The notes beneath the pieces are model-generated. The model saw only the letters and a list, made by a program, of their open reading frames with translations, ran no database searches and was not told where the DNA came from. DNA of 64,000 nt, from positions 4,218,001-4,282,000 of the forward strand of contig CM075996.1 in the NCBI GenBank assembly GCA_038087875.1, written 5' to 3'. The position numbers and the translations under genes are program-made. Each line of letters begins with the position of its first letter. Positions within the stretch are counted from its first letter, which is position 1. Of the stretch, positions 6,373-60,655 are shown piece by piece. The DNA is from Malacoraja senta. Lineage: Eukaryota.

Positions 6373-9300
6373 TCAAATTAAAATATTAACATTTTTATCT
6401 ATAATATATTCAACCTCCTGCGGTGACCAGCATTCACAGAAGGCCTCCACAGTCCCCGTGGACACCGCGTGTTCCCTCTCTAGGGACACGCGGGCACGGA
6501 CGTAACCCCGGAAAAGGGGCAGGCAGCCGACCGCTGTGCGGCCATCGACCGCCCGCTGCCTGGACCCGCGAATGGCCATCTTGGCCAGGCCCAGGAGCAG
6601 TCCGACAGGGAGACCCCCTCCTCCCTCCCGACCCTCCCCCCTCTTTACCGGGTGCCCATAAATTAATAGCGTTGGACTAAAATGTAACCAAAACTTGAGG
6701 AGCAGCCCTTTCAGATACTCGAACAGGGGCTGCAACCTCTCGCACTCTATATACACGTGGAACACGGTCTCTTCCTCACCGCAGAAATGACAAGCAGGGG
6801 AAGAGTCCGTGAACCGGCTCAAGTACCTATTACAGGCCACGGCTTTGTGCAAAACTCTCCACCCCAGGTCCCCGATGTAAAGGGGGAGGACTCCCTTGTA
6901 GAGATACCTCCACTGGGGACCGCTCCCCTCGTCAGGTGGTAACACGGACCGCCAGGGTGTGTCTGGACGGAAGACGAGGGCGAGGAAGTGGAGAGTGTGC
7001 AAGAGCAGCCTGTACAGTACACGCCTCTCCGCGCCACGGAATGGCACACTGGGCATCTCAGAAAGGCGGCTCATGTTGCATGGGGCCGGCTCTCGGGGAG
7101 GGTCCCGGGCCATGGGCCCTATGAACAATTCCGACTGAGCGGGGGTAAGCTCGTCCGGAATCGCTCCATGCACACGCCTCTCCTCGATACCCACCGTCAC
7201 AGCCACGACACCCCCCTCCCCCTGAGGAGCAGGGCCCTGGCTGAAGGTGACCAAATTCCTGGCCTTCAGGACTTCACGGTAAAAGCCAGGCAACTCCCGC
7301 CTAGCGCGTCGACTCATGCCCGCTACCGGGAGCCGGGAGCCCTCCTGAAGGCACCGCCCCTGACGGAAAAAGTACGTCGCCAGCACGTGCCATTTAGGAG
7401 GGTAGTCCGAGTAGACGTACCTCCGCAGGGTCCTGAGTCGGAGAGCCGCCACCTGGGTACGAATACAGACCAGCGCCTGACCACCCTCCTCCAACGGGAG
7501 ACTCAGAACCCCAGCAGAGACCCAGTGGTTCCTCTCCCCCCAGAAGAAGTTGACCAATCTCCTCTGTAACATGGTTATAAAATAAGAGGATGGGACCATA
7601 GTGGCCATCCGGTACCACAGTAGAGAGGCCACCAGCTGGTTTATAACTATAGCCCTGCCCCGGTAAGAGAGCACACCAAGTAGGCCTGACCAACGTCCCA
7701 GCCGGGCGACCACTTTCGCCTCCAGCTCCTGCCAGTTCGCCGGCCACCCCTCCTCAGCGGGACTCAGGTAGACCCCCAGATAAAGGAGGTGCGTTGTACT
7801 CCACGCAAAACCTGCCATCTCCTCCGGCAGGGAGTCCACCTGCCACCCACCCATCAAGAGACCAGAACACTTCCCCCAGTTGATCCTGGCGGAGGATGCA
7901 GCCGAGAAAACCTGCTGGCACTCACGCATCCTCCGCAGGTCAACAGGGTCGGTGAACATCAGAAGGACATCATCGGCGTAGGCCGAGAGAACCACCTCCA
8001 TCCCCGGCCCCGGTAAAGCCAGGCCTGTCAACCGCCTCCGGAGAAGGCACAGGAAAGGCTCGACACAGATGGAATACAGCTGGCCGGACATGGGACATCC
8101 CTGACGAACCCCCCTCCCAAAGGGAATGGGGGCCAACAAAGAGCCGTTGACCTTAACAAGGCATTCTGCAGCAGTATATAACAGTCGGACCCAGGCCACA
8201 AAATGCGGTCCAAATCCGAACGCCTGCAGAGTCCCAAGAAGGTAGTCGTGCTCCACCCTGTCAAACGCCTTCTCCTGGTCGAGGGAGAGAAAGGCGACCG
8301 ACTGACCAGCCCCCTGGGACAGATGGATCAGGTCCCGGAGCAGATGGATATTGTCCTGGATGGACCGGCCCGGGACTGTGTACGACTGGTCAGGGTGGAT
8401 CACCTGGGACAGCACGGGACCCAGGCGATTCGCCAATGCCCTTGCAAAGACTTTATAGTCCGTGCTGAGGAGAGAGACCGGGCGCCAGTTCTTCAAAAGG
8501 CGAAGATCGCCCTTCTTGGGCAGCAGGACAACAACTGCCCTGCGCCAAGAGAAAGGCATCTCCCCGGTCGCCATGCTCTCCCCCAGGACCTTCATATAGT
8601 CGCCCCCCAGGACATCCCAGAAGGCTCTAAGGTACTCCACAGTCAGCCCATCCAGCCCTGGAGACTTGCCCCTCCTAAGCTGGTGCAGGGCACCAGTCAA
8701 CTCCTCCAGAGTTAGGGGATCATCCAGGTGTTCAGCCACATCATTGCACACTACGGGTAAGCCCTCCCACAGGACTTCTTGCGCCTCCCCACTCGATGTG
8801 CCAGCTGAGAACAGAGTCCTGTAGAAAGACCGAACCGAGGCACCAATGCTCTCTGGATCTGTGACAGAGGAGCCATCATCCGCAAGCAACTCTACAAGCT
8901 GCCTGCGGGCTCCTCGCCCCTTCTCCAGAGAAAAGAAAAAGGGGGAGGCGCGGTCCAGGTCGTGCAACATCTGGACCCGCGACCTCACATACGCACCCCG
9001 GGACCTCCTAAGCTGCAAGTCCCTCAGTGCTCCCTTCTTCTCCTGGTATTCCTCCCACTCACACGAAGCCCCACCAGTCTGATCCAGATGAGCCTCCGAG
9101 TCGAGCAACTCTCTCTCAAGCCGTCCGATCTCGGATTCCCGCCCCTTGGTCGACCCCCTCGCATAGTCCTGGCAAAACTGACGGACGTAGACTTTCCCCA
9201 CGTCCCACCACTGCCTTAGGGAAAGGAAACGCCCCTGCCTCTCTCTCCACCTCACCCAGAACTGCCTGAATGAATCCCGGAATCGGCAATCCTCCAACAG

Positions 9301-10050
9301 CTGGCTATTTAAATGCCAGTACGCGGACCCTGCCCGTGTGCGCGCTGGGATAAAGTCCACTCGCACCAGGCAATGGTCCGAGCATGGCGCCGGCTGCATG
9401 GAGGCTGCCGAAACACAAGAGACATAGGCCTTGGACACGTATAAATGATCAATACGGGACCCACCACCCTCAAACCTGTACGAGAAGGCGTTAGAGTCAG
9501 GATGGAAATTCCGCCAAGCATCTACCAGCTCAAAAGAGTCCACCATCTCCCTCAAAGTCTTCACTGCTCCCGGGTCACGCTGAACGCCAGAGCGATCTCT
9601 TGTCTCAAGGGCACAATTAAAATCTCCCCCAAGGAAAACACACTCCCCACGGTCGATAGTATTCAACAACGTGGTCACTTCCCCTGTTAAGCGCGTCTGC
9701 ATTGCGCCGATCTTGGGGGCGTACACATTAACGAAGTGTAATGGCACACCATCCAAGCGCACGGCCAGATACAGCAAACGGCCTGGTACAACCTCCTGCA
9801 CTTTGAGGATCTCCGGCTGGAAAGACGGGGCCAACAGGAAGGCTACTCCACTCGATTTGGAGCTGAGATGACTCATATAGACCCCCCCTTCCCACTCCAG
9901 GAGCCATGTGGGTTCATCACTAGCCACAGTGTGTGTTTCCTGCAGGAAGCTCACCGCATATCTCCCGTCTCTGAGCACTGAGAGATGGTGAAACCTACGG
10001 AGAGACCCCCTGCCCCCATTGATATTAAGGCTGGCTATAGTGAGCTTCAT
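6373..10050 (-). CDS. Tx1 ORF2: APE endonuclease + reverse transcriptase + C-terminal CCHC zinc finger, 1225 aa, uninterrupted
   Basis: APE motifs SLNING, FLQETH, NVYAP, GGDFN, SRID, SDH. RT motifs KSPGLDG, NWRPVSLL, LDQEKAFDRV, GVRQGCPMSG, YADD, YLG. C-terminal CHFCGEEETVFHVYIEC. Confidence 0.95.
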   Translation of the reverse strand: MKLTIASLNINGGRGSLRRFHHLSVLRDGRYAVSFLQETHTVASDEPTWLLEWEGGVYMSHLSSKSSGVAFLLAPSFQPEILKVQEVVPGRLLYLAVRLDGVPLHFVNVYAPKIGAMQTRLTGEVTTLLNTIDRGECVFLGGDFNCALETRDRSGVQRDPGAVKTLREMVDSFELVDAWRNFHPDSNAFSYRFEGGGSRIDHLYVSKAYVSCVSAASMQPAPCSDHCLVRVDFIPARTRAGSAYWHLNSQLLEDCRFRDSFRQFWVRWRERQGRFLSLRQWWDVGKVYVRQFCQDYARGSTKGRESEIGRLERELLDSEAHLDQTGGASCEWEEYQEKKGALRDLQLRRSRGAYVRSRVQMLHDLDRASPFFFSLEKGRGARRQLVELLADDGSSVTDPESIGASVRSFYRTLFSAGTSSGEAQEVLWEGLPVVCNDVAEHLDDPLTLEELTGALHQLRRGKSPGLDGLTVEYLRAFWDVLGGDYMKVLGESMATGEMPFSWRRAVVVLLPKKGDLRLLKNWRPVSLLSTDYKVFARALANRLGPVLSQVIHPDQSYTVPGRSIQDNIHLLRDLIHLSQGAGQSVAFLSLDQEKAFDRVEHDYLLGTLQAFGFGPHFVAWVRLLYTAAECLVKVNGSLLAPIPFGRGVRQGCPMSGQLYSICVEPFLCLLRRRLTGLALPGPGMEVVLSAYADDVLLMFTDPVDLRRMRECQQVFSAASSARINWGKCSGLLMGGWQVDSLPEEMAGFAWSTTHLLYLGVYLSPAEEGWPANWQELEAKVVARLGRWSGLLGVLSYRGRAIVINQLVASLLWYRMATMVPSSYFITMLQRRLVNFFWGERNHWVSAGVLSLPLEEGGQALVCIRTQVAALRLRTLRRYVYSDYPPKWHVLATYFFRQGRCLQEGSRLPVAGMSRRARRELPGFYREVLKARNLVTFSQGPAPQGEGGVVAVTVGIEERRVHGAIPDELTPAQSELFIGPMARDPPREPAPCNMSRLSEMPSVPFRGAERRVLYRLLLHTLHFLALVFRPDTPWRSVLPPDEGSGPQWRYLYKGVLPLYIGDLGWRVLHKAVACNRYLSRFTDSSPACHFCGEEETVFHVYIECERLQPLFEYLKGLLLKFWLHFSPTLLIYGHPVKRGEGREGGGGLPVGLLLGLAKMAIRGSRQRAVDGRTAVGCLPLFRGYVRARVSLEREHAVSTGTVEAFCECWSPQEVEYIIDKNVNILI

Positions 10051-12149
10051 TTTGAAAGTACACTTGATCTTTTACCCGACCCCGGTGATGGATTGGAGCC
10101 GCCCCTACCCTTCTTCCCTCTCTTTAGGGCCTTAAAAAGCTCTTGGAACTGGCGCCTCTCATTTCTTACTAGCCCCGCCTCATTCCCCTTCTTCTGAAGG
10201 ATGGCATGAATGGACTGCATGGGCGCCATCAGGTCCGACCAGCGGTCGACAGCCAACTCCACCTTGTTCCTACTCCCTCTAGTGTCCTTTAAGAACTTCC
10301 GAAGTTCCCAGACTTCGACAAGTTGAGACACGGGGCCGCGGGTGGAGCAGTCCGTCAACTCATTGTCGATGGACTCCGGGTACCCCTCCTCCTCACACTC
10401 AATGTCCGAGCCCGAGTCCAGATGGTTACTACTCTCAGCCGCCTCGCTCACCCCTCCCTGTGAGGTGGGCATTCCAGCCACATCACACAGTCCCTCCTCT
10501 GTCACCATCCCACCCCCAGGATCAGTGACAGGGGCAGGTACCGGTGCCTCTGACCGCGGCAAGCTTTCTGACAGTTGGCCAGTCTCCTGCACGCTCCCAT
10601 CGCCCTCTGTAACCAGATTGGGAACAGTGAACTCAGAGCAAGTCTCCGGGCCTTGCTGTAAGCGGGTCTGTCTGGAGTCCGACCTAAGGACACGATCCAA
10701 AACGATCTTGCCCTCCTCCGCACCCAGGGTATCCGCCCCTGCACCGTCACCCAGAGAGTCCCCGTCCCCCACCACCAGGTGAATCACCCCACTGTGTCCC
10801 TCAGGGGCCGATGTTACTGGAGTCTCCCCTGCTCCCTCAACCAGTGGGGCATTACACCCCTCAACTGGGCTTGTAGCCTCAACGGGGAGCTCATGTTGGG
10901 GACCCACCCCCTCACCCAATTCCCCCCCTTCAGGCTGCCCCTGGTCATCCACTAAGCTAGCAGACATGTTTTCTGGGGGAACAGCCCCCAAGAGCAATAT
11001 ATCGCCACTCTCAGGTGGCCCCAGACCTACAGAGGCATCCTCCCCCTCAGAGGAAACTTGCCCTGGGTACCCCACCTCAACAGGAGGGGAAGGCTCCCCT
11101 TCAGGTTGCCCCTGAACTTCAGGGCCCTTCTCTGTATCGGACGACCCATGCCTCCTCCTCTTCGAACCACTGGCGTACGGTGGTACGGTGAGCTCCATTG
11201 CAGAAGCCTCTACCTCCACATTACCTTCTATCTCAGAGGCGAGCATGAAATTATCTGCTTCCTGGGGTCCCGCTTGGAGGTGATCATCTTCTAGGGGATC
11301 AGCCTGGAGATGTTTCTTCTTTTTATTGACTTTCCTCCCCTGCTGATGCTCCCAAACCTTCCCATCCACCCTACGCACTTCTCCGGCATCCACCGCCACA
11401 GGTACGGGACATGGGGGTGGTGGGGGGATAGGGGTTGGGGGTAGGGGAGTAAAGCCTTCACGGGCCACCGTGGTAAAACCAGCAGCCCCAGATGGGCCAG
11501 TAGTGCTTTCCCGTGCCATCGTGGTGGAACTGGCAGCCCGGGTCCTGGGACAATTCTTGCGAAAATGCCCCACCTGTTTGCAACCGTGACAACGCACTTG
11601 GCCCGCATTCCAGAACACGCGATAGGAGAAATCATCCACCTCCACCTCAAAACTCCCCTCCGTGTCCATCCCCTTTGCCAACTGTATATACACGCGACGC
11701 TTGAACGTATATACATGCTGCATCTCAGGATCGTCAAACCTGTACAACAGTTTGGTGAGCCCTGACCGCACCTCCCCCAGCTTCCTTACATGTGGGAGCA
11801 GGAGCGCATCCGGAACAAAAGTGGGAACATTGGACAGAATGACCGGCAAAACGGGACCCCCCCATGGGTCCACCGCCGCGAAAATCCCCCCTGCTGTTAC
11901 CCCCCTTTCCAGAGCCAGAGCCACCGCCTGTTCAGTCTTTAGTATAACCACAACCTTCCCACTGACCACCGCGCCCGAGACTATGGCTTTCTTGCCAACA
12001 GTCTCACCCAACGCATCTAGAAAGGCTTTTAAGGGCAGGTTGCTCTTCATGTACATTTTTACACCATATGTGCGCCCCATCAACTCATGGCCCTCAGTCT
12101 CTGAGACTGCCGACCGCACGACAGCTGCATAACTCTGAGGGGCCGCCAT
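10047..12149 (-). CDS. Tx1 ORF1 (gag-like RNA-binding protein), 700 aa from the ATG at 12149
   Basis: Starts MAAPQSYAAVV. Tx1-type VILSNVPTF..HVYTFKRRVYIQL block, zinc knuckle CHGCKQVGHFRKNC and a long acidic/Pro-rich linker. Stop overlaps the ORF2 start (ATGA). Confidence 0.9.
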   Translation of the reverse strand: MAAPQSYAAVVRSAVSETEGHELMGRTYGVKMYMKSNLPLKAFLDALGETVGKKAIVSGAVVSGKVVVILKTEQAVALALERGVTAGGIFAAVDPWGGPVLPVILSNVPTFVPDALLLPHVRKLGEVRSGLTKLLYRFDDPEMQHVYTFKRRVYIQLAKGMDTEGSFEVEVDDFSYRVFWNAGQVRCHGCKQVGHFRKNCPRTRAASSTTMARESTTGPSGAAGFTTVAREGFTPLPPTPIPPPPPCPVPVAVDAGEVRRVDGKVWEHQQGRKVNKKKKHLQADPLEDDHLQAGPQEADNFMLASEIEGNVEVEASAMELTVPPYASGSKRRRHGSSDTEKGPEVQGQPEGEPSPPVEVGYPGQVSSEGEDASVGLGPPESGDILLLGAVPPENMSASLVDDQGQPEGGELGEGVGPQHELPVEATSPVEGCNAPLVEGAGETPVTSAPEGHSGVIHLVVGDGDSLGDGAGADTLGAEEGKIVLDRVLRSDSRQTRLQQGPETCSEFTVPNLVTEGDGSVQETGQLSESLPRSEAPVPAPVTDPGGGMVTEEGLCDVAGMPTSQGGVSEAAESSNHLDSGSDIECEEEGYPESIDNELTDCSTRGPVSQLVEVWELRKFLKDTRGSRNKVELAVDRWSDLMAPMQSIHAILQKKGNEAGLVRNERRQFQELFKALKRGKKGRGGSNPSPGSGKRSSVLSK

Positions 12150-14440
12150 CTTTAGGGCGTGGCACAACACACAAAGTATCAGTAGTTTATATCCAAAGCA
12201 GTCTTTCTGCTGTTGCTGCACCTCCACTCTTTTGCAGCAGTTAAATAGTCCTGTGAAGGCTTTCTTGGCAAGCAACAGAAGCAGTCTCCTCCTGATAAGA
12301 TAGGAAATGTCCGTGCCAATCCTCCCCGTCGTAAAAAAATGGAGCTTCCTTATGCTTCTTCCTCAGGCCTCCGACTCCTCCCCGGCTTCAACGAAATCCA
12401 AGGCACTGTTGCCGTTCTTACCCAGCCCACCTGGACCGGGCAAGTCGGTGTAGGAGGGAGCTTTCCGATGTTACTGACCACAAACACCACTCTAGACTCA
12501 GCTCCCACTCGTTCAAGTGTAACTTGGCCTTCCGCCAGCCACTGCCGCTCCTACGACTTTACAGATACACGGACAAATCCTCCCTAATTAGAGGAATCCT
12601 TGAACAAAGAAAGTCTCTGCAGATCGACAAAGCTCTGAACTGCAAAGTCTGACTGCTTTTGTTTCTCCCCGCCAAACAAAACCTTCTGAAAAGTTCATCA
12701 AATCCTCCCCGCCAGCAGAACAGCTCCTCACCTGGCCCTGCTCTGGGAGTAGGAGTGGGGTCGGATCCGGATCCGCAACGGCCGTGAGCCCCAGGCCGAG
12801 CTCGGCGATCGTTTGCCTGCTTCTGCTGCTGTTGGAGGTGAGACGTTGCGTTGCGCCAGGGTCTTGGGCCTGTCCCACTTTGGCCGTCAGTTACGCGACA
12901 GGCCGGTGGCGCACGAAGATTTCGTTCGCTACAAAGATTTCGGAACCCCGCGCGATGTCGCGCACAACTTCATACCCCTCCGCGCTTCTCAGTGGGACCG
13001 GCCACACGATGCCCGTGCGCCTCAACACGACCACGAGGTCGCGTAATTTGCGTGCCAAGGACACGTAAGTGGGACAGGCCCTTTACTCTGCCGGTGCATG
13101 GTAAAGGAGTTGGACCTGCTCCATCTGATGGCATCTAGGACTGGCTTCCTCATCCTCTCCTTCCCCCCTCCCTCACTACACCCGCAATTGGGAGAAGGTA
13201 GTAGAAAAACAGCGCGGCATGCTTAGGTTAGTTTAGAGATACAGCACGGAAACAGGCCCTTCGGCCCACCGAAGCGATCCCCGCACATTAATAACACCCT
13301 ACACGCACTAGGGACAATTTTTTACATTTTTTTTACATCAAGCCAATTAACCTACAAACCTGCACGTCTTTGTAGTGTGGGAGGAAACTGACGATCTCGG
13401 AGAAAACCCACGCAGGTCACGGGGAGAAAGTACAAACTCCGTACAGACAAGCACCTGTAGTCAGGATCGAACCCGGGTCTCGGGCGCTGCACGGCAGTAG
13501 TCTACCGCTGCGCCACCACCGTGCCTCCGACGGCATTGCTATTCCTGTCACCTAGACGGGAAACAGAACCACACACTATCCAAAGATGGACACAAAATGC
13601 TGGAGTAACTCAGCGGGTCAGGCAGCATCTCTGGAACAAAGGAATAGGCGACGTTTCAGGTCGACCTTTTTCAGACCCGAAATGTCACCTATTTCCTTTC
13701 TCCAGGGATGCTGCCTGACCCGCTGAGTTACTCCAGCATTTTTTGTCTATCTTGGGTGTAAACTAGCATATGCAGATCAGGTAAGGATGGAAAGTTCCCC
13801 TCCCTGAAGGATAATGGGGAGCCCAGTGAGTTGTTACAGCAATCCCATATTTTTGTAGTCACCTTTTACTTGTAGTGCTAAACTCCAAGTGGCTGAAGTT
13901 GGAGTAGCTGAATTTAAATTCCACATGTTGGGATTTGAACTTGTTTCTCTCTGGATTGATAGTAATTGATAGTAGACAAAAGTGCTGGAGAAACTCAGCG
14001 GGTGCAGCAGCATCTATGGAGCGAAGGAAATAGGCAACGTTTCGGGCCGAAACCCCTGATAGTTTTTGGATTACCAGTTGTTTAACCACCATGCCTCCAT
14101 GGTGATGTTTCGGGCTGAGGGGAGAGGTATAGGGACAGGTGTGGCATCTCCTACGGTTGCTCCCAGAGTGAAGAGGGACTCGACCCGAAACATCGACTAT
14201 TCCTTTTCTCCAGAGATGCTGCCTGACCCCCCCTGAGTTACTCCAGCTTTTGTGTCGATAACTTTTTTATGAGCTTGTTGATTCAAGAAGGGGGTTTACC
14301 TCTTTCCCAAGGGCATTAATCGTCAGCCTCCTTAACAATGCCGCATCTGAAGGATGAACAATTGGGTCCCTCTGGGCCAGCGCCTTTGTGTAGCAAAGCG
14401 TTCCGGCCCCTCACAAACTAAGTGCTCCTTTCCCAAGATC

Positions 14441-20286: not shown

Positions 20287-20650
20287 GGGACGACAGATGG
20301 CGCAATGGGCTAAGTGTTCGGCTGGCAACCGGAAGGTAGCCGGTTCGAATCCCGCTTGGAGTGCATACTGTCGTTGTGTCCTTGGGCAAGACACTTCACC
20401 CACCTTTGCCTGCGTGTGAATGTGTGTGAATGTGTGTGAATGTGTGTGAATGATTGGTGGTGGTCGGAGGGGCCGTAGGCGCAGATTAGCAGCCACGCTT
20501 CCGTCAGTCTGCCCCAGGGCAGCTGTGGCTACAGAAGTAGCTCACCATCACCGAGTGTGACTGAGGAGTGAATGAATAATGCGATGTAAAGCGCCTTGAG
20601 TATTAGAAAGGCGCTATATAAATCCCATCCATTATTATTATTATTATTAT
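20287..20650 (+). mobile_element. tRNA-head CORE-SINE with L2-type tail (AFC-like)
   Basis: A/B boxes (TGGCGCAATGG, GGTTCGAATCCC), CORE GTGTCCTTGGGCAAGACACTT, tail TGTAAAGCGCCTTGAG..AAAGGCGCTATATAAAT + (ATT)n. TAACCC duplication inside a CR1 tail. Confidence 0.8.
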
Positions 20651-50160: not shown

Positions 50161-50318
50161 CTTCTTCTTCTGTCGTGTGTCTTTTAGACCTGGAGCTCCG
50201 TTGAGGCGAGCCAGGCCAACGTGTCATCGTCCAGGTCAATCAGAGCTGGTTCACCATTCGGCGGCCGGTGTTTGGGGCAACTGGTGACTATGTGCTCCAC
50301 TGTCTGTGTTGGGTCTGA
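50161..50318 (-). mobile_element. 3' fragment of a Vingi/Ingi-like LINE with (GAA)n tail
   Basis: Encodes DPTQTVEHIVTSCPKHRPPNGEPALIDLDDDTLAWLASTELQV* (end of a CCHC finger), then a short 3' UTR and GAAGAAGAAG. Flanking TGGACT repeat. Confidence 0.7.
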
Positions 50319-50936: not shown

Positions 50937-51104
50937 CACTGTGCTGGCGTTCACAACAGGCTCCACACCGCCGTTCACCTCTGTTTGTTCCTTCTTCCCT
51001 TCTTCCATTACAGTCATTGTGCTTGGTCCCTTCTTCTTCTTGAGCTTGGCGAGAATAGAGGATTCACGTTCGGGGAATGGCGGCATCTCTTCCAGGACGG
51101 TGGC
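50937..51104 (-). CDS. AP2A1: AP2A1 coding exon, 168 nt (trunk end / hinge start)
   Basis: [56 protein letters not shown]; ag/gtgagt borders. Confidence 0.93.
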
Positions 51105-51135
51105 CTAGAGTGCAGTAGGGAACAAAAGGGGCAGT

Positions 51136-51478
51136 GTGAGAGTGAGTGAGAGAGTGAGTGTGAAAGTGAGTGAGTGAGAGAGTGAGAGAGTGAGTGAGAG
51201 AGTGAGAGAGTGAGAGAGTGAGAGAGTGAGAGAGTGAGAGAGTGAGAGAGTGAGAGAGTGAGAGAGTGAGAGAGTGAGAGAGTGAGAGAGTGAGAGAGTG
51301 AGAGAGTGAGAGAGTGAGAGAGTGAGAGAGTGAGAGAGTGAGAGAGTGAGAGAGTGAGTGAGTGAGTGAGAGAGTGCATGAGCGAGTGAGCGAGTGAGAG
51401 TGAGTGAGCGAGAGAGTGAGCGAGTGAGTACGAGTGAACGAGTGAGTGAGTGCGAGGGAGTGAGTGCGAGTGAGAGAG
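51136..51478. repeat. (GAGAGAGT)n/(GAGT)n microsatellite just upstream of an AP2A1 acceptor
   Basis: Directly visible; ends ~30 nt from the AG at 51105-51106. Confidence 0.95.
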
Positions 51479-52215
51479 AAATAACATTGTGGAAAAATAA
51501 ACGCCTTAAATAGGAGGGGGGAGGGGGGAGGGGGGGTGGGGAAAGGGGGCAGAGAGAAGTCTGCTACTGAGGAAGGAGCTGATATGTCCCCATGTCATCC
51601 CCTGTAATTTAACTTCCCCTTTCGTGAAATCACGTCAAACAAAATGGCTGGAATATTACAATTAAAAACATTCTTGTCCACATCTTTCAATCTTTCCCCT
51701 TCCCACCTCCGTTTCTCAAGGTTGCACCAGCTCTGTAACTCGGATTTCTATACTCCAATATTTCTGATCTTCACACCACTGCTGGCTCTTCCTTCAGCTG
51801 CTCTCTAAAATTCTGTACCCGCCTTGTTTTTTTATAAAGGCATCCTTAAACCCAGCACTTTAAACTTAACTTTTGCATTATCTAGCCTGCCATCCAATCT
51901 CGTGAATCAATGTTAGTGGATAATGCTGAGATGTGCTCTAGCAAGCTTTTGTCATGTTATAAATGGGTGGTGCTGGTATTGTCTATTTTGCCAGAGAGAT
52001 CATCACAGGTGTCACTATAGAGCGTTTAGTTTACTGTCACGTGCACTGAGGTACAGCAAAAAGCTTTTGTTTGGAAGGAACAAATTTGGTCTTGGTTTTC
52101 TTACTACAGCCTCAGCAGAGAGCAGGTAACATAGCATAGATCAAGAGTTATACTTAGGGACTTAAAACATTGTAAACCACAACTGCACTTTACCAATTGA
52201 ACAATTTTTTGTTTA

Positions 52216-52626
52216 CATAGAAACATAGAAAATAGGTGCAGGAGTCCATTCGGCCCTTCGAGCCAGCACCGCCATTCATTGTGATCATGGCTGATCGTCC
52301 CCAATCAATAACCCGTGCTTGCCTTCTCCCCATATCCCTTGACTCCACTAGCCCCTAGAGCTCTATCTAACTCTCTCTTAAATCCATTCAGTGACTTGGT
52401 CTCCACTGCCCTCTGTGGCAGAGAATTCCATAAATTCACAACTCTCTGGGTGAAAACGTTTTTTCCCACCTCAGTCTTAAATGACTTCCCCTTTATTCTA
52501 AGTCTGTGGCCCCTGGTTCTGGACTCACCCAACATTGGGAACATTTTTCCTGCATCTAGCTTGTCCAGTCCTTTTATAATTTTATATGTTTCTATAAGAT
52601 TCCCCCTCATCCTTCTAAACTCCAGT
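52216..52626 (-). mobile_element. CR1-like LINE 3' end
   Basis: LEFRRMRGNLIETYKIIKGLDKLDAGKMFP..WNSLPQ; (TTTCTATG)n-type tail. Confidence 0.88.
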
Positions 52627-53796
52627 TTAGACATAGTGTGGAAACAGGCCCTTCGGCCCACTGAGTCAGTGCCGACCAGCGATCCCTGCACATTTACACT
52701 ATCCTACACACAGTCGGGACAATTTACTATTATACCAAGGCAAATAATCATGCATGTCTTTGGAAAGTGGGAGGAAACCAGAGAAAACCCGGCCACGGGG
52801 AGAATGTACAAACTCTGTACAGACAGCACCCGTGGTCGGGATCGAACCCGGGTCTCTGGCGCTGCAAGGCAGCAGCTCTACCGCCGTGCCACCGTGCCGC
52901 CCTTATTGAATAAATAATACCCAGACATGGACACATTCAATAAGAAATTGCAGTCACAGCTCAATTTTAGCCCATAGTATTAATTAAAATATAACACGAT
53001 TAACATCTTTTTTCCCCCGTAGGTGAGGAAATAAGCAGAGACCAAAGACTTAAAATACATAGGGTAGACAAAAGTGCTGGAGAAACTTAGCGGGTGCAGC
53101 AGCATCTATGGAGCGAAGGAAATAGGCAACTTTTCGGCCCGAAACATTGCCTATTTCCTTCGCTCCATAGATGCTGCTGCACCCGCTTTCTCCAGCACTT
53201 TTGTCTACCTTCGATTTTCCAGCATCTGCAGTTCCTTCTTAAACACTTAAAATACCTAGGTTGAAGGCAGCTGTATTTGAGAGCACATGCTCCAGCAGAG
53301 TATAGAATTTGAATCCTTCTGTGCTGTAACTTTTGCAGTGGTTTTATTTTAAAGCCCAATTGGGGAAGATACAGATCAACGTTTCCTCAGCATTGTAGCA
53401 TGAAGCAGTACAACATAATTTCTCTAGTTAATGACTTTCACAGGAATTGGAGAAGGCCACTAGACTTCAATCCAGATGTACCTTTCGATATCATGGCTGA
53501 TCTATGACCACGGCACCTATCCTATACAGCACAGCAAGGCTTTTATTTCTTAAGTCCAAGCTAACTAATCCCGCTAAGAACAGTCAATATTGCATTGGCA
53601 TCTGCAGCATACAAATTATTATGGAAAAATTACCTGCCACACTTAAAAATTATCACTTGTATAGCAATTCCCATCTGTAATTTCCAGTACTAGTGCCACA
53701 GATGCCAGCCTAGATTATTTGTTCATATCTCTGGGAAGGACACAGACAGGTGCAACTCTATTAGATAAACCCTGTATGCAGCAACAAGTCAAAACA

Positions 53797-54160
53797 TTGG
53801 AGGTGGTCTTGGAGGGGAAGAGGATGCTCCTCAAACTGCAGAGCATCTTGGACAATACAGCTCACCCCCTCCATGACGCACTGGTCAACCTGAGGAGCAC
53901 CTTCAGCTACAGACTGGTTCCACCAAGATGCAGCACAGAACGCCACAGGAGATCCTTCTTCCCTGTGGCTATCAAACTGTACAACTCCTCCCCCTTCTGT
54001 TGTGGGGTAGGCGGACTCCTGCACCCCCCCCCCCCCAAATCTTTGCACATGCCCAATCCTGGACTTTCCACTTTAAATTCATGTTTCATGTATCTTGTTG
54101 TTTTATGACTGTTGGCAGAGCAATTACCCTCCTGGGATAAATGAAGTTCTATCGTGTCAT
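53797..54160 (+). mobile_element. Rex1/Babar-like LINE 3' fragment (related remnants near 46405-46760, 47640-47930, 61445-61850, 63575-63860)
   Basis: LLKLQSILDNTAHPLHDAL..RLVPPRCSTERHRRSFFPVAIKLYNSS. Confidence 0.75.
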
Positions 54161-54196
54161 GTCACAGAACAACTCGGGCTCTGGTCTTTTACCTAC

Positions 54197-54428
54197 CAGA
54201 ACATCAGTGCTGGCAATTGAGCTGAGCTTGAGGTACTCCACAGCCCGCTGCTGCAGTTCCACATCAGAGTTGCGGAGCTGGCTGTCACTGCGCAGCACGT
54301 CCTGGATGGTGGCCTTGGTCTCGGGGAAAAGGTTGACGAACTTGATGTACGAGGAGAGCAGCAGAGCGCGGGTCGGGACACTGCACAAGTGGAACTTGGA
54401 ATGGAGCAGGTTGAACTGAACTAAGGGG
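54197..54428 (-). CDS. AP2A1: AP2A1 coding exon, 232 nt
   Basis: [77 protein letters not shown]; ag/gtaggt borders. Confidence 0.95.
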
Positions 54429-56250
54429 CTAAAAGTATAGGGAGAAAGGGGAGAGAAAATATCCACATATTACAAAAATAGCGCATACATAATGACATGA
54501 AAAATGACATTTGAGGACAGGACTAGCTGGTGCGCTGTTTTTGCTTCATACATTTATAACGCCTTGAGCATCTTCTCCTTTCCAAAGGCTTTACTCATTA
54601 GCATCCATCTCCCAAACTATCGAATACCATCTCTCAAAACCCCTCCATCATACAGGATTGAAGATAGGACAATAGGCAATAGGTGCAGGAGTAGGCCATT
54701 CGGCCCTTCGAGCCATCACCGCCATTCAATGTGATCATGGCTGATCATCCCCAATCAGTACCCCGTTCCTGCCTTCTCCCCATATCCCCTAACTCCGCTA
54801 TTTTTAAGAGCCCTATCCAGCTCTCTCTTGAAAGCATCCAGAGAACCTGCCTCCACCGCCCTCTGAAGCAGAGAATTCCACAGACCGACATTGGGTCAGT
54901 AATTTCTTTCAAGATATACTGGATGAGGGCAAAAATAAGATCAATTTCTCTCCAGGTATTGGGTATGGATGTTCCTGAGTGGTTGAGAAGGGTCAATATC
55001 CAGGAGCACCACAACCAAAGAGCATTGAGAGAACCATCAGGCCAGGCACCATCTATGTAGGGAAATGGACAGACTAGATTTTGCGCAGGGACCTTTCTTC
55101 AGACTGCCTCCAGCACTTGTTCCTTTGCTCAAGATTCCGGCAAATCTAGAATCCCGAGTTGCTAGGATCAAGGTTCTCATGTCTCCATGGAGGGGACCAC
55201 TGCTGGTCAAGGAGGAGAGAGCTTACCACCACTTTCAAGGAGCAACTTGTGAATAAGCAGGATAAGCTGCCGCAGATTTCCATAGACACAAATGATGCTT
55301 GGAGTCAGAATCGTACAGCACAGAAACGGGCACTCCGGCCCACCATGTCCATGCCAACCTTAATACCCATCCACCCATCTGCCCACATTGGGTCCTGAAA
55401 TTATTTAAAACTATTCTGGGCAAGGGCAAAGACAATAACAATTTCTCTCTAGGTATTGTGTGTGTCATCAATGCCTTTAGCTGGCCAATATTCCATTAGA
55501 AAGAAGGGAAACGTGCAAAGGAGATACTTAAGCACAATGTTTCTTATGCCTTCATCTTTACTGGCCATTGGAAAAATCCATTGTTGTGTCAATAGGCTTC
55601 TCGCGTAAAAACAATAACAATGATGTGGGGAAACAAACTATAGATGAGTCACCATCTTGCAAGAAATATTCCTGCATGTACTCTTCACAGTAAAAAGAAC
55701 GAGGTGCAAAATGGTTCATTGGCAAAGTGGAATGTTGAGTGTCAAATCTAGGTATGGGATGCTGATCACGACTCAAAACTTGAAGCAAAACGCTGCACAT
55801 TCTGCAAATCTGGAATAAAAAACTGTAAATACAGGAAGAGAGAGTGAGGGAGAGAGGGAGAGAGGGAGAGTATGTGCAGTACGGTAGGACCATGGGAGCA
55901 TTACAGGGGATAAAGTGATGGGGGAATGTACACATCTTTAGTGCATGGGACGGACACATTTTCATAAGTTCACAAGTTCATGAGTGATAGGAGCAGAATT
56001 AGGCCATTCGGCCCATCAAGTCTACTCCTCCATTTAATCATGGCTGATCTATCTCTCCCTCCTAACCCCATTCTCCTGCCTTCTCCCCAAAACCCCTGAC
56101 ACCCGTACTGAGTCACCAACTGAGACATGCCAGATCACCAGTAATGATCAAATATTCTGGCACAAATAGTGATTGGATCACAGACTCTTTGCAGGAAACA
56201 ATAAGCTTTTAACGGCACATTCAGAATGCACTTTACTGATGACTTTGTGT

Positions 56251-56304
56251 GGGGTGGGAGATTGCAACCTTCACGTGGTCCGCCCTGTTTCGACAAATGC
56301 AATC
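56251..56304 (+). ncRNA. Predicted minimal HDV-like self-cleaving ribozyme (54 nt)
   Basis: P1 GGGGUGG/CCGCCCU with G1-U wobble; P2 GAUUGCA/UGCAAUC; P3 ACC/GGU; L3 UUCACGU; P1.1 G; mini-P4 U-UUCG-A; J4/2 CAAA. Confidence 0.8.
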
Positions 56305-56390
56305 AACCTGGCGTGCACAGACAAATAGATCAAATAGATCAAGTTGTCCTACAACTTTAGGCTGTGCACGCCATACGCAAGAAGAAGAAG
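56251..56390 (+). mobile_element. ~140-bp non-autonomous retroposon with a 5' HDV-like ribozyme and (GAA)n tail
   Basis: TSD ATGACTTTGTG (56239-56249 / 56391-56401), tail ..ATACGCAAGAAGAAGAAG. A second copy at 60164-60297 shares the same 5' end. Confidence 0.85.
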
Positions 56391-56538
56391 ATGACTTTGT
56401 GCCACGTCGCGGTGCTACAAAGGAACAGGAAGACAAGTCCCTGGCTAACGGCATTAACAGCCAGGCTCTCACTACAATTCGGCACATTCTCATCGCAATA
56501 CTAGAGGCAGGCCACCTCTTCTACCTCCTTTAGCTCAC

Positions 56539-56636
56539 CTGGATCGTGGATCGCCGGCAATGAGATTCCCAAACTCTCCTAGGATATATCCACCTACTTT
56601 CACCATGTTCTCGTGACAGGCTGGGGCCTGGAGTGC
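56539..56636 (-). CDS. AP2A1: AP2A1 coding exon, 98 nt
   Basis: [32 protein letters not shown](S); ag/gtgagc borders. Confidence 0.95.
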
Positions 56637-56929
56637 CTTAAGGCAAAAGACAGAAATAGATTAATGCCAACAGATTTCCTAACAATCCTTCCTACTGGCA
56701 CGACGTTTGGGGTGGTGCAGTTAGCAGGGCTATTGCCTCAAATCTCCAGTCATCCCGACCTCCGCTGATATGTGGGTGGAGGTTGCGCATTCTCCCAGAG
56801 ATCTTGAGGGCTTCATCGGTGTGTTCACAGATTCCCACCCCAAACACTGTGCCAGGTTGGACAGTAAACTGGCAGTGGTAGAAACTGGGTGGAAGTTGAT
56901 GGGAATGCAGTGAGAATAAAAAAGGGTTA

Positions 56930-57583
56930 TAGACAATAGACAATAGGTGCAGGAGTAGGCCCTTCGGCCCTTCGAGCCAGCACCGCCATTCAATGTGATC
57001 ATGGCTGATCCCCAATCAGTACCCCGTTCCTGCCATCTCCCCATATCCCCTGACTCCGCTATTTTCAAGAGCCCTATCTAGCTCTCTCTTGAAAGCATCC
57101 AGAGAACCAGCCTCCACCGCCCTCTGAGGCAGAGAATTCCACAGACTCACCACTCCCTGTGAGAAAAAGTGTTTCCTTGTCTCCGTTCTAAATGGCTTAC
57201 TCCTTATTCTTAAGCTGTGGCCCCTGGTTCTGGACTCCCCCAACATCGGGAACATGTTTCCTGCCTCTAGCGTGTCCAAACCCTTAACAATCTTATATGT
57301 TTCAATGAGAGCTTTTCTCATCCTTCTAAACTCCAGAGTGTACAAGCCCAGCCGTTCCATTCTCTCAGCATATGACAGTGCCGCCATCCCGGGAATTAAC
57401 CTTGTAAACCTACGCTGCACTGCCTCAATAGCAAGAATGTCCTTCCTCAAATTAGGGGACCAAAACTGCACACAATACTCCAGGCGTGGTCTCACTAGGG
57501 CTCTGTACAACTGCAGAAGGACCTCTTTGCTCCTATACGCGACACCTCTTGTTATAAAGGCTAACATGCCATTCGCTTTCTTC
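56930..57583 (-). mobile_element. CR1/HER1-like LINE 3' fragment
   Basis: 183-aa [41 protein letters not shown].. Confidence 0.9.
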
Positions 57584-59837
57584 AGGGAGGATTAGCTTAA
57601 AAATAAGGCTTGATGTTTGATGCGGGGTGGGAGAGACCAAAGGGTGCGATTCTATGTGTAGCTCCGAACTGCGTGTCACGGGGAGAACATACACATTTCA
57701 TAGGCAGCACACGGGTCTCTGGGGCTGTAAGGCAGCAGCTCTACTGCTGTGCCACCGTCCCGCCCTGGGTTAACATACTATAAACTATTAGGTCAATATA
57801 CTTCAAAACAAGTCATTGTAATCTTTGGTGCACCAGTTTCAATACAACAAATATATTTAAGTCAAAAGAAGCAAAAAAAGATAATCAGAAAAAAACATTC
57901 ACCCAACATTCATTAATACAACACTTTGCAAGTCAATTTACAAAATTAGTGACAAATTCCAGCAGCTGGAGAGGTGGATTTCAAGGTGATTTGTAACAGT
58001 AGAGCATGATACAGTTTGTATTGAACATTCTCAAGTGTGGGATAACATGGCTAAAGATTTATAGCAACCCGAGAACAAATAGAATAGGTAACATGCAGCA
58101 AGGCAGAAATAGTTCAAAGAGTGAAGCGGGAGATGGAACATGGGAGAAGGTAGGAATAATAAGATCAACAGTGAAATATAGCGACACATGCGATTATTAC
58201 TACATTGTATGCACAAAAGGAATTTCATTGACCTAGGTACATGTGATAATACAATACAAAGGGTGACTAGCAAGGAAGAGGCCAACAAGCAACCTGAGAC
58301 TTTGTCAGAGAGAAGAGAGGATTGGTAAAGGATGGGAGGCCTGTGACAAAGGGTAATACAAGATTACAAGGTCACAAATAACGATGTCAGAGCCAAGAGG
58401 TTTCAAAGAGTGAAAGAAACACGGACAGGCAGTATTTTCAGATGCAGAGCAAGACTGTCTGCTAAATTTTAAACGTAAAAAAAAATGTTGCTAATATGAG
58501 ACCAAAAGTTTAGGAACAAAAATTTACCGGGCAATAAAAATGATCGATTGGAAAAAATAATGAAAGAGAATCAACATGGATGTGTTAATGGCCTGTTGAC
58601 TTGCTTTGAGGGAGTATGGTTCAGTGACGATATTGGATCTGACATGGTCTAGGTCAAGTGATCTGCTAAGATCCATGTGGTTCCCCCGTGACAGACGGGT
58701 GATCAGAAAACTCAAAGCCAATAGGATCCCAAAGAAAGGGACAGGTTGGTTGCAAAAACGGTTCATTGGTTGCAGGCCGAGATGACCATTCAACTGAAGT
58801 TTTAGTGACTGCAAGAATATGCATGGCTCAGTGGAGGCACCATATTGCTCAGGATGTATAATCATTGTTTTGGCATTAAACGTAGGGAACATGACTGCAG
58901 AAGATTGGTTTAAAAATAAAAGGCAGTGTGCCTCCTCATAATGAAGAAAGCTGGCAGGTGCAGGAAAATAACAATGGGCTGGTTAAGTAGGCTAAAATTT
59001 GCAAATGAAATTCAGTCCATAGAAGTATGAGGTCATACATTTTGGAAAGGGAAAACGAGGCTTAGTAATGCATTATAAATGATAGCATGGGAAGAAAATG
59101 TGAAATGGGGATCTTGGCATCCAGAAGACATCCTTGAAGGTACCAGGACAGAGAAATAAGATGATTAAGGTGGTATCCAAGCTAGTTTTCAATCAAAGGC
59201 ATAGAACATTTGGTCGGGCTGTTAAAGTACTGCTCGAATTGTTAAGTACATAACCAGGAACATGTATACAATAGGGAACGTGCAAAGATTTGTGGGCCAG
59301 ATAAATGTAGTCATGTGGAGAAATGACTAGGCTGGGTTTGTTTTCTTTAGTAATTTAATTAAGTATTAAATTATGAGGTGCCTTGACAGGAAGAACAGCT
59401 AGTTAAATTTCTCTTTGCAGGGCAGTCAATAGAGGATGGAGATGAATCAATAGATGAAAATTGATGAATCTTTTGCCGCACCAACGAGAAGCGGGGGGGG
59501 GGGGGTATTTGGAGTGTGGAGGCAGAAACCTCTCTCACATATCTGGATGAACATCCAAAGGGCTGAAACCTCCAGGCTACAGCCAATGAATTAGGAATCA
59601 GAATAATTCCAACTGGCTCGTGACCTCCACAAGCATAATGTGACAAGTGGCATCAGGCACTTTGAGGCCAGCTGTAGCTGGGACTGTAAAATGACACCAA
59701 AATGGCTCCTCTTGCATGTGGACAGTGGGCTGTTCTATATTTCACTGTACCTGGTACACGGGAGACAATAAAGCAACCATTGACCTTCGGTGTTGTTAAC
59801 GTCAATGATTCAGAGAGATCTTGAATCCCTCAATGAG

Positions 59838-60445
59838 TGGGTTAACGTATGATGGGCATTTGACGGCACCGGGCCTGTACTCGCTGGAGTTCAGAAGGAT
59901 GAGGGGGGGGGGGGGGGGGGGACCTCATTGAAATTTATCGAAGAATGAAAGGCTTGGATAGAGTGGATGTGGAGAGGATGTCTCCACTAGTGGGAGCGTC
60001 TAGGACTAGAGGTCACAGCCTCAGAATTAAAGGACGTTCCTTTAAGAAGACGATGAAGAGGAATTTCTTTCGTCAGAGGATGGTGAATCTGTGGAATTCT
60101 TTGCAACAGAGGTCTGTGGAGTCCAAGTCAATGGATATTTTTAAGACAGAGATAAATATTCTTCTCTTCTTCTTGCGTATGGTGTACACAGCCTAAAGGA
60201 CAACTTGTTCTATTTGATCTTATTTGATTGTGCACGCCAGGTTGACTGCATTAGTTGAAACAAGGCGGACCACGTGAAGGTAGCAATCTTCCACCCCGAT
60301 AGATTCTTGATTAGTATGGGTGTCAGGGGTTATGGGGAGGGGGGGAAGTCAGGAGAATGAGTTTCAGAGGGAGAGATATATCAGCCATGACTGAATGGCG
60401 GAGTAGACTTGATTGTCCGAATGGCCTCATTCTGCTCCTGTCTCA
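59838..60445 (+). mobile_element. CR1-like LINE 3' end hosting the ribozyme retroposon
   Basis: MKGLDRVDVERMSPLVGASRTRGHSLRIKGRSF..VNLWNSL. Confidence 0.85.
60164..60297 (-). mobile_element. Second, more diverged copy of the HDV-ribozyme short retroposon, inserted in a CR1 fragment
   Basis: Reverse strand reads GGGGUGG AA GAUUGCU ACC UUCACGU GGU CCGCCUU G UUUCAA CUAA UGCAGUC ... CCATACGCAAGAAGAAGAGAAG. Confidence 0.8.
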
Positions 60446-60472
60446 CTTATGAGCGTACGGTCGGATTCTTAC

Positions 60473-60655
60473 CTCAAACACAGTCTTTGCTGCATAACCT
60501 TGGACATCATCACGATTAATAACAATCTGAATAACTCGGTACCAGACCTCCTCGCTGACATAGTCCCCTGCAATGCGGATCAGGTTCAGGATTGTGTCCA
60601 CGTACCATGTGTAATCCACTGCATACTTCTCTGCTAGAATCGCCACCTTTAGCAC
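60473..60655 (-). CDS. AP2A1: AP2A1 coding exon, 183 nt
   Basis: [61 protein letters not shown]; ag/gt borders. Confidence 0.95.

Follow-up and report, generated by a model that had tools for sequence, protein, structure and literature searches.

A predicted minimal HDV-like ribozyme heads an abundant short derivative of a Vingi-like LINE in Malacoraja senta

What kind of mobile element begins with a predicted self-cleaving ribozyme, and where did it obtain its head? The question is raised by an insert of ~140 nt at 56251-56390 of a 64,000-nt stretch of the Malacoraja senta genome (assembly GCA_038087875.1, contig CM075996.1, positions 4,218,001 to 4,282,000 of the forward strand; hereafter the window, whose first letter is position 1; features lie on the + strand unless stated otherwise). 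A preceding analysis of the letters alone (the sequence-only reading) had described the insert as a ribozyme-headed short interspersed nuclear element (SINE) that opens with a fold resembling that of the ribozyme from hepatitis delta virus (HDV), cuts its own 5' end out of host read-through transcripts independently of a promoter and is mobilised in trans. Our analysis supports the fold and points to a different origin: both ends of the insert match those of a Vingi-like long interspersed nuclear element (LINE), of which it is a short internally deleted element (SIDE) and from which it inherited the predicted minimal ribozyme unchanged.

The first 54 nt (56251-56304) parse into every element of the HDV double pseudoknot at the positions given by the sequence-only reading, with P1, P2, P3 and P1.1 nested, all present and in the correct order. 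P1 (56251-57/56280-86) comprises 7 bp including a G1-U wobble, and the 2-nt J1/2 (56258-59) leads into P2 with seven Watson-Crick pairs (56260-66/56298-304). P3 (56267-69/56277-79) has 3 bp and carries the 7-nt L3 (56270-76), from which C56272 reaches G56287 to form the 1-bp P1.1. There is no P4 helix in this head; a short loop (56288-93) takes its place, and just 5 nt separate U38 (counted from G56251 as G1) from the predicted catalytic C56294, the first base of J4/2 (56294-97). The predicted cut lies 5' of G56251. Absence of P4 defines the minimal HDV-like subtype (10.1101/2023.06.13.544163). A descriptor of the head, composed after the match was known, found one locus in the window and matched neither any of 30 shuffled windows nor any of 20,000 dinucleotide-shuffled versions of the element. 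Decoys in which A, G or T replaced the catalytic C had no match in the window. The sequence-only reading had also proposed a covariance-model search. We trained such a model on nine heads of other LINE families, excluding the element and its parent, and both copies of the element in the window ranked first and at their exact first base, with 36.0 and 31.3 bits and roughly estimated E-values of 1.1e-6 and 1.7e-5; the next of 14 window matches reached 11.3 bits (E 2.2). Folding without pseudoknots, which cannot display this fold, gave z -2.5. The sequence-only reading was right about the position and catalytic C of J4/2, but the CAAA of the window copy is not typical: J4/2 is CGAA in 49 of 78 copies and CAAA in 16, probably through CpG decay, for which reason CAAA was rejected as a subfamily marker.

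The anatomy of the insert is that of a retroposon. Target-site duplications (TSDs) of 11 bp (56239-49 and 56391-401), or of 12 bp when a G shared with the tail is counted (56238-56249 and 56390-56401), bound the element, whose tail consists of four AAG units (56379-56390), and a single extra T (56250) stands between the 5' TSD and G1. The second copy (60165-60297, - strand; 87% identical) begins at the same G1 (60297) and has one broken P2 pair, and ARAGORN finds no tRNA in the element. The sequence-only reading had noted the TSD and trinucleotide-repeat tail, the start within 1 nt of the predicted cleavage site, the common first G of both copies and the lack of a tRNA head.

Across the 1.94-Gb genome, a 21-mer of the head has 2,739 exact matches and a 22-mer of the tail 2,844 (reversed controls, 0). 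We sampled the first 90 tail-anchored loci on one contig, which left 84 after removal of six duplicates; because 24 of these contain the head 21-mer without mismatch, we estimate roughly 9,600 copies. In this sample the 5' ends are shared and not scattered, a point that the sequence-only reading had put up for checking: 78 of the 84 copies start at nt 1-5 and 63 at nt 1. The remaining six include a copy that begins at G1 but has an internal deletion and another that probably represents the truncated end of a LINE. TSDs of at least 8 bp (median 12 bp) accompany 69 of the 78 copies, abutting G1 in 33, overlapping it by one base in 18 and leaving one or two extra bases in 14. Dispersed in large number and equipped with a TSD and the tail of the LINE, the full-length copies attest to independent retrotransposition. 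Subfamily-level changes in the head occur at three sites, 8 (J1/2), 32 (U-A or U-G in P1) and 45 (the N of CNAA); a confinement of such changes to tolerant sites is suggestive, given that there are three. The base preceding G1 is T in 34 of the 46 copies with a non-G there, which might reflect a target preference favouring cleavage of daughter transcripts.

The origin of the element became apparent from LINE families collected in two protein searches, in which 150 of 1,724 and 150 of 814 candidates were scored. Nt 1-80 of the element correspond to the 5' end, and nt 94-141 to the 3' end, of a Vingi-like LINE of ~3.1 kb in this genome, termed family H. The 5' piece (56251-56330), with the ribozyme and the start of the 5' untranslated region (UTR), is identical to locus L366 at 74 of 80 positions, and the 3' piece (56344-56391), with the last codons, stop, 3' UTR and (AAG)n tail, is identical to L354 at 44 of 48. 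Between them, 56331-56343 matches neither LINE end and may be an element-specific junction made of a short duplication and the start of the inner hairpin arm. In family H the element head lies in the 5' UTR and continues into a frame for apurinic/apyrimidinic endonuclease (APE) and reverse transcriptase (RT). Among 11 fetched 5' regions, eight carry the head at 85-92% identity, one carries part of it and two begin downstream, and all 9 fetched 3' ends match that of the element; the family has at least 478 3'-end candidates and ~30 5' regions. Since the element's ends are both ends of this LINE, we classify it as a SIDE. The oldest element subfamily keeps the A32 of the LINE (16/18), and two copies, L082 and L209, have different deletion breakpoints. 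Of the "ribozyme SINE", the HDV-like head thus stands, whereas the independent SINE gives way to an internal-deletion derivative of a LINE; the pointer of the sequence-only reading to Ingi-group LINEs proved sound, and mobilisation in trans is supported. In the 5' regions of family H (L361, L362, L364, L365, L366), junctions with inverted internal segments of the LINE are frequent, an arrangement like that left by twin priming.

The Vingi-like label rests on architecture and on C-terminal and 3'-end motifs. Vingi elements have been described as compact, with a single open reading frame (ORF) encoding APE and RT and no RNase H (PMC13708176). In families A, E and H, Pfam identifies Exo_endo_phos and RVT_1 domains and detects no RNase H; the elements measure ~3.1 kb. 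No Vingi or Ingi name occurs among the 120 homologues listed. The same ancestry bears on the idea of a SINE transcribed by RNA polymerase III (Pol III) with a head that resembles a ribozyme by chance, an idea already disfavoured and in our view highly improbable. Its loop TTCGA resembles part of a B box, but the best placement of A and B boxes has four mismatches and is equalled by 1,332 of 3,000 shuffles, the tRNA-type repeats of the window have no B-box mismatches, and the element contains no tRNA and begins with the LINE's own 5' end. A classical SINE head (tRNA, 7SL, 5S or snRNA with A and B boxes) is not seen in the element.

The fold recurs in related families. A 5'-truncated 3' end with AAG tail at 50161-50315 (- strand) led to family A, a related Vingi-like LINE of ~3.1 kb with APE and RT and no RNase H match. 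Over 18 pairs, the head of family A and that of the element have nine in common and nine changed on both sides, with none broken. Family A was rejected as the partner, as the fold is shared but the head sequence is unmatched, and so was family B, which is 85% identical over 26 nt yet has a 3' end without significant match. A pattern for a parent with a long P4 had 64 matches, and all 30 examined were short elements, as expected because the parent itself is minimal. In a set of eight heads from seven LINE families plus the element, scored for P1, P3 and P1.1, 97.7% of cells pair, and in 8 of 11 pairs both partners vary; none of 500 shuffles attains the pairing or the covariation score, and slid partners pair in 42-52%. 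With P2 included, 141 of 153 cells pair (maximum in 100,000 shuffles, 119), a count in which family F is out of register at 10 of 17; in P2 and J4/2, families F and G both depart from the fixed register. U20, C24 and G25 are invariant in the nine heads and C opens J4/2 in the seven in register; invariant G1, U20 and G25 and a C opening J4/2 (CNRA) were found. The conservation of P1, P2 and P3 pairing that the sequence-only reading had named as a check is hence evident from compensatory changes in sister families. Rfam HDV-type models match LINE heads at the first base with scores below cut-off (family A, E 0.15; family C, E 0.04 and 0.15; family D, E 0.49). At least nine Vingi-like families (A-H and L340) coexist in this genome, and every LINE 5' end examined (L160-L165, L286-L305, L340-L344) has an HDV-like P1/P3/L3 core, with differing sequence and P4 length. 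Dozens of near-identical family C copies are on unplaced contigs (C2824, C1421, C2310 and others), which suggests that they ride in a larger amplified repeat.

Is G1 also the start of an RNA? We aligned four raw RNA runs, which carry the same species label and may stem from another species, to L060, a near-majority copy with G1 at 1485. In the single-cell run X21, 1,490 of 4,209 aligned reads have adapter directly before G1. The loose part of these reads (median 31 nt, consensus agreement 0.8) has a consensus that we take to be the complete template-switch oligo, and at the junction the adapter's GGG leads straight into the four G that belong to the element, and an additional G is absent. A complete adapter with its own GGG ahead of the four element G argues for true RNA ends and against internal strand invasion. 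Read depth drops by ~950 near element position 100, the expected end of 130-nt reads that open with the adapter, and most adapter reads presumably cover the SIDE-specific middle; 312 reads run into poly(A) at the start of the tail, which may be due to priming on the A-rich tail, and sense depth is 3-8x antisense depth. In the bulk runs, loose ends at G1 number 467 (X23) and 595 (X24), and their consensus is mixed and adapter-like. The reads at G1 represent real RNA 5' ends, with which a 5'-OH cleavage product and a transcription start are equally compatible.

Alternatively, a Vingi SIDE might owe its start at G1 to an internal RNA polymerase II (Pol II) promoter in the LINE 5' end, the ribozyme being a slow back-up or functional in the LINE only. 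Capped ends are favoured by template switching, and a start at G2 plus a cap-templated G would yield the observed run of G. The precedent is Pr77 of L1Tc/NARTc, where promoter and ribozyme both reside in the first 77 nt (PMC3383444). The genomic setting of the window copy fits this proposal as well. The element is located in an intron of the AP-2 alpha adaptin gene, ~140 nt from an exon (56539-56636, - strand) that was recognised by peptide motifs and splice sites read in the sequence; a downstream exon of the gene matches AP-2 alpha at E 1.8e-18. Being antisense in this intron, the element would not cut the host message. Two claims of the sequence-only reading, promoter independence and cutting out of host read-through transcripts, accordingly go beyond the evidence: the RNA ends seen would be no different had transcription begun at G1, L1Tc/NARTc combine promoter and ribozyme, and the window copy is antisense to the host intron. 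Yet the fold and the catalytic positions are kept by covariation in all families examined and the printed junction has no extra G, and we consider this alternative unlikely. The two are not exclusive, and both promoter use and ribozyme cleavage may hold. The second copy is sense to the host, a single case, and it is the one with the broken P2 pair; AP-2 alpha adaptin exons span 50943-60650 (- strand) of the window.

Downstream of the ribozyme, the element keeps 26 nt that pair with the LINE 3' UTR in a 12-bp stem (5' arm, 56309-56320; 3' arm, 56362-56373, in the LINE-derived 3' UTR), thereby linking the two LINE pieces. The stem, at -15.0 kcal/mol in the LINE, reaches -24.9 kcal/mol in the element, a gain due to two subfamily changes. 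Cognate 5'-3' pairing was equalled by 0 of 1,000 shuffles in families H and C and by six in family E. A post-ribozyme segment complementary to the segment before the tail was observed in families H, C, E and B. End pairing would presumably help recognition by the protein and could explain the bipartite derivatives in these clades; the bias towards such derivatives was noted as unexplained (PMC5786205).

We consider the following course of events probable. A copy would be transcribed from a promoter upstream or within, and the ribozyme, whose fold and RNA ends are seen, would cut 5' of G1 and give the RNA a defined start. The LINE-derived UTR pieces would then form the end-to-end stem, and a Vingi protein would bind the RNA in trans. 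Target-primed reverse transcription, an established step of non-LTR (long terminal repeat) retrotransposition, would insert a full-length copy from G1, which the ~12-bp TSDs and the tail reflect.

Several findings weigh against this course. Rfam gives no ribozyme match in the window or the element. The J1/2 is just 2 nt long, and by analogy a very short J1/2 may perform poorly here too, as Agam-2 constructs with a J1/2 of 0-1 nt had little or no activity (PMC4908430). Pairing of G37-U38 with A43-C44 around UUCG could trap the catalytic C. In the bulk runs, ~300 reads each extend to -1 or -2 with flanks of 62-70 nt and represent uncut read-through. The full core is intact in 28 of the 84 sampled copies and in the window copy, a low share; non-CpG divergence of ~2.4% is similar in head (2.05%) and body (2.65%), which indicates neutral decay of inserted copies, and no selection on them was seen among the 84. 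The stem is borderline in families A (55 of 1,000 shuffles as good) and B (57) and absent in D (260). Finally, we infer the family that supplied the helper protein, since the sole long family H copy examined (L348) is frameshifted and interrupted. On the first four of these points one could propose that the P4-less fold with its short J1/2 is kept structurally and is catalytically very weak, the full-length copies being due to a short template and recognition of the 5' end by the LINE protein. We judge this very improbable: families A, B and C keep the common geometry of a 2-nt J1/2 and a 7-bp P2, theta ribozymes are active in vitro without P4 (10.1101/2023.06.13.544163), and the RNA 5' ends at G1 are discrete.

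A ribozyme head on a short LINE derivative has precedents, and the element joins the bipartite non-autonomous LINEs; ribozyme-headed SIDEs are already known from R2 and NARTc. Like it, the R2 SIDEs and R2/R1 hybrid SIDEs of Drosophila are internally deleted and non-autonomous, keep a 5' HDV-like ribozyme and the LINE 3' end and are mobilised in trans (Eickbush and Eickbush 2012, PMC3414825). R2Dwi_SIDE, however, measures 529 bp, is rare and restricted to 28S rDNA, and its cleavage was tested (PMC3414825), whereas the present element is a ~140-nt, dispersed, P4-less derivative of an APE-type LINE with ~10,000 copies in a vertebrate. The trypanosomatid pairs NARTc/L1Tc and RIME/ingi and the SIDERs are also short partners of Ingi-group APE LINEs, and NARTc and L1Tc have in common an HDV-like ribozyme at the 5' end, with its cut at +1 (PMC3383444). 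NARTc differs as a protist element with a 77-nt ribozyme that doubles as promoter (PMC3383444), compared to the 54-nt head and AAG-repeat tail found here. Internal-deletion derivatives of Vingi itself were described as bipartite derivatives of Vingi-1_EE (Kojima 2018, PMC5786205). The closest ribozymes in form are drz-Mtgn-1 and the theta ribozymes, which likewise have no P4, a short loop and a catalytic C first in J4/2; these were assigned to gut phages, and the reported search of human, mouse and protist genomes had matches in bacteria only (10.1101/2023.06.13.544163), while the minimal form described here stands at the start of a retroposon in a vertebrate.

The mammalian CPEB3 ribozyme (RF00622) has the same L3 and 1-bp P1.1 plus U-U as the element, which equals it by position at U20, U21, C22, A23, G25, U26, G37 and U38 (PMC4836649). 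The CPEB3 ribozyme occupies one conserved intronic locus and has a P4 (PMC4836649, PMC8233481), unlike the element, which has other P1, P2 and P3 sequences and no Rfam match. A much closer likeness was found in family E, in which all five loci (L336, L337, L345, L346 and L347; e.g. G000:C21:8958100-8958200) exceed the CPEB3 model's cut-off of 35 with 40.7-64.2 bits (best E 5.6e-16); heads of family D, family G and L340 score 19-26 bits. L336 has an open frame of 1,014 aa, and a 25-mer of the family E head has four exact matches genome-wide. Family E and the CPEB3 consensus agree at 32 of the first 39 nt, including an unbroken run of 18 and positions free to vary in other families, with compensatory changes in P1 and P2. 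The likeness is possibly convergent, given that R2 and HDV agree at 21 of 27 core nucleotides (PMC8256844). A trace of Vingi is reported in the human genome (PMC5753468), the CPEB3 ribozyme dates back at least to the marsupial-placental split (PMC8233481), and the parts of the CPEB3 literature examined, PMC8233481 among it, propose no source for it. From the head sequences, we lean slightly towards a Vingi 5' end as the ancestor of the CPEB3 ribozyme of mammals. The wider proposal, that HDV-like ribozymes are clade-wide in Vingi at the 5' end, with the element as the most reduced of their mobile forms, an active 54-nt ribozyme at ~10,000 vertebrate loci giving rise to abundant small RNA, and CPEB3 as a domesticated Vingi 5' end, has in our estimate a little better than an even chance. 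The 5' ends of L336 and L337 hold tandem repeats of a ~26-nt unit, the beginning of the ribozyme of family E, perhaps through repeated template jumps.

Other features of the window include an apparently intact LINE with two ORFs (771 aa and 1,232 aa) at 6373-12362 (- strand), which we take to be Tx1-like, a tRNA-Ala-like call at 20290-20364 that is probably the head of a tRNA-derived repeat, and, between 3059 and 64000, many copies of an abundant palindromic repeat family (D5, D6, D8, D10) and of tRNA-headed repeats, a repeat composition that seems typical of cartilaginous fishes.

The open-access papers searched contained no report of a Vingi ribozyme, a eukaryotic P4-less HDV-like form, this family or a link between CPEB3 and Vingi; an earlier description of the family is possible. 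With these findings, Vingi would join the ribozyme-bearing LINE clades, and a P4-less HDV-like fold previously tied to phages is now seen in a vertebrate retroposon. The element probably displays the least RNA that a Vingi protein needs, i.e., ribozyme, end-to-end stem and tail; Vingi-1, native UTRs included, is being developed to insert genes (PMC13708176). Its thousands of natural variants, together with expressed RNA, represent a ready mutational library, and the family lets one ask whether insertions that cut themselves are purged from introns when they lie in sense orientation. Through the near-CPEB3 head of family E, the origin of the CPEB3 ribozyme in mammals can be tested directly.
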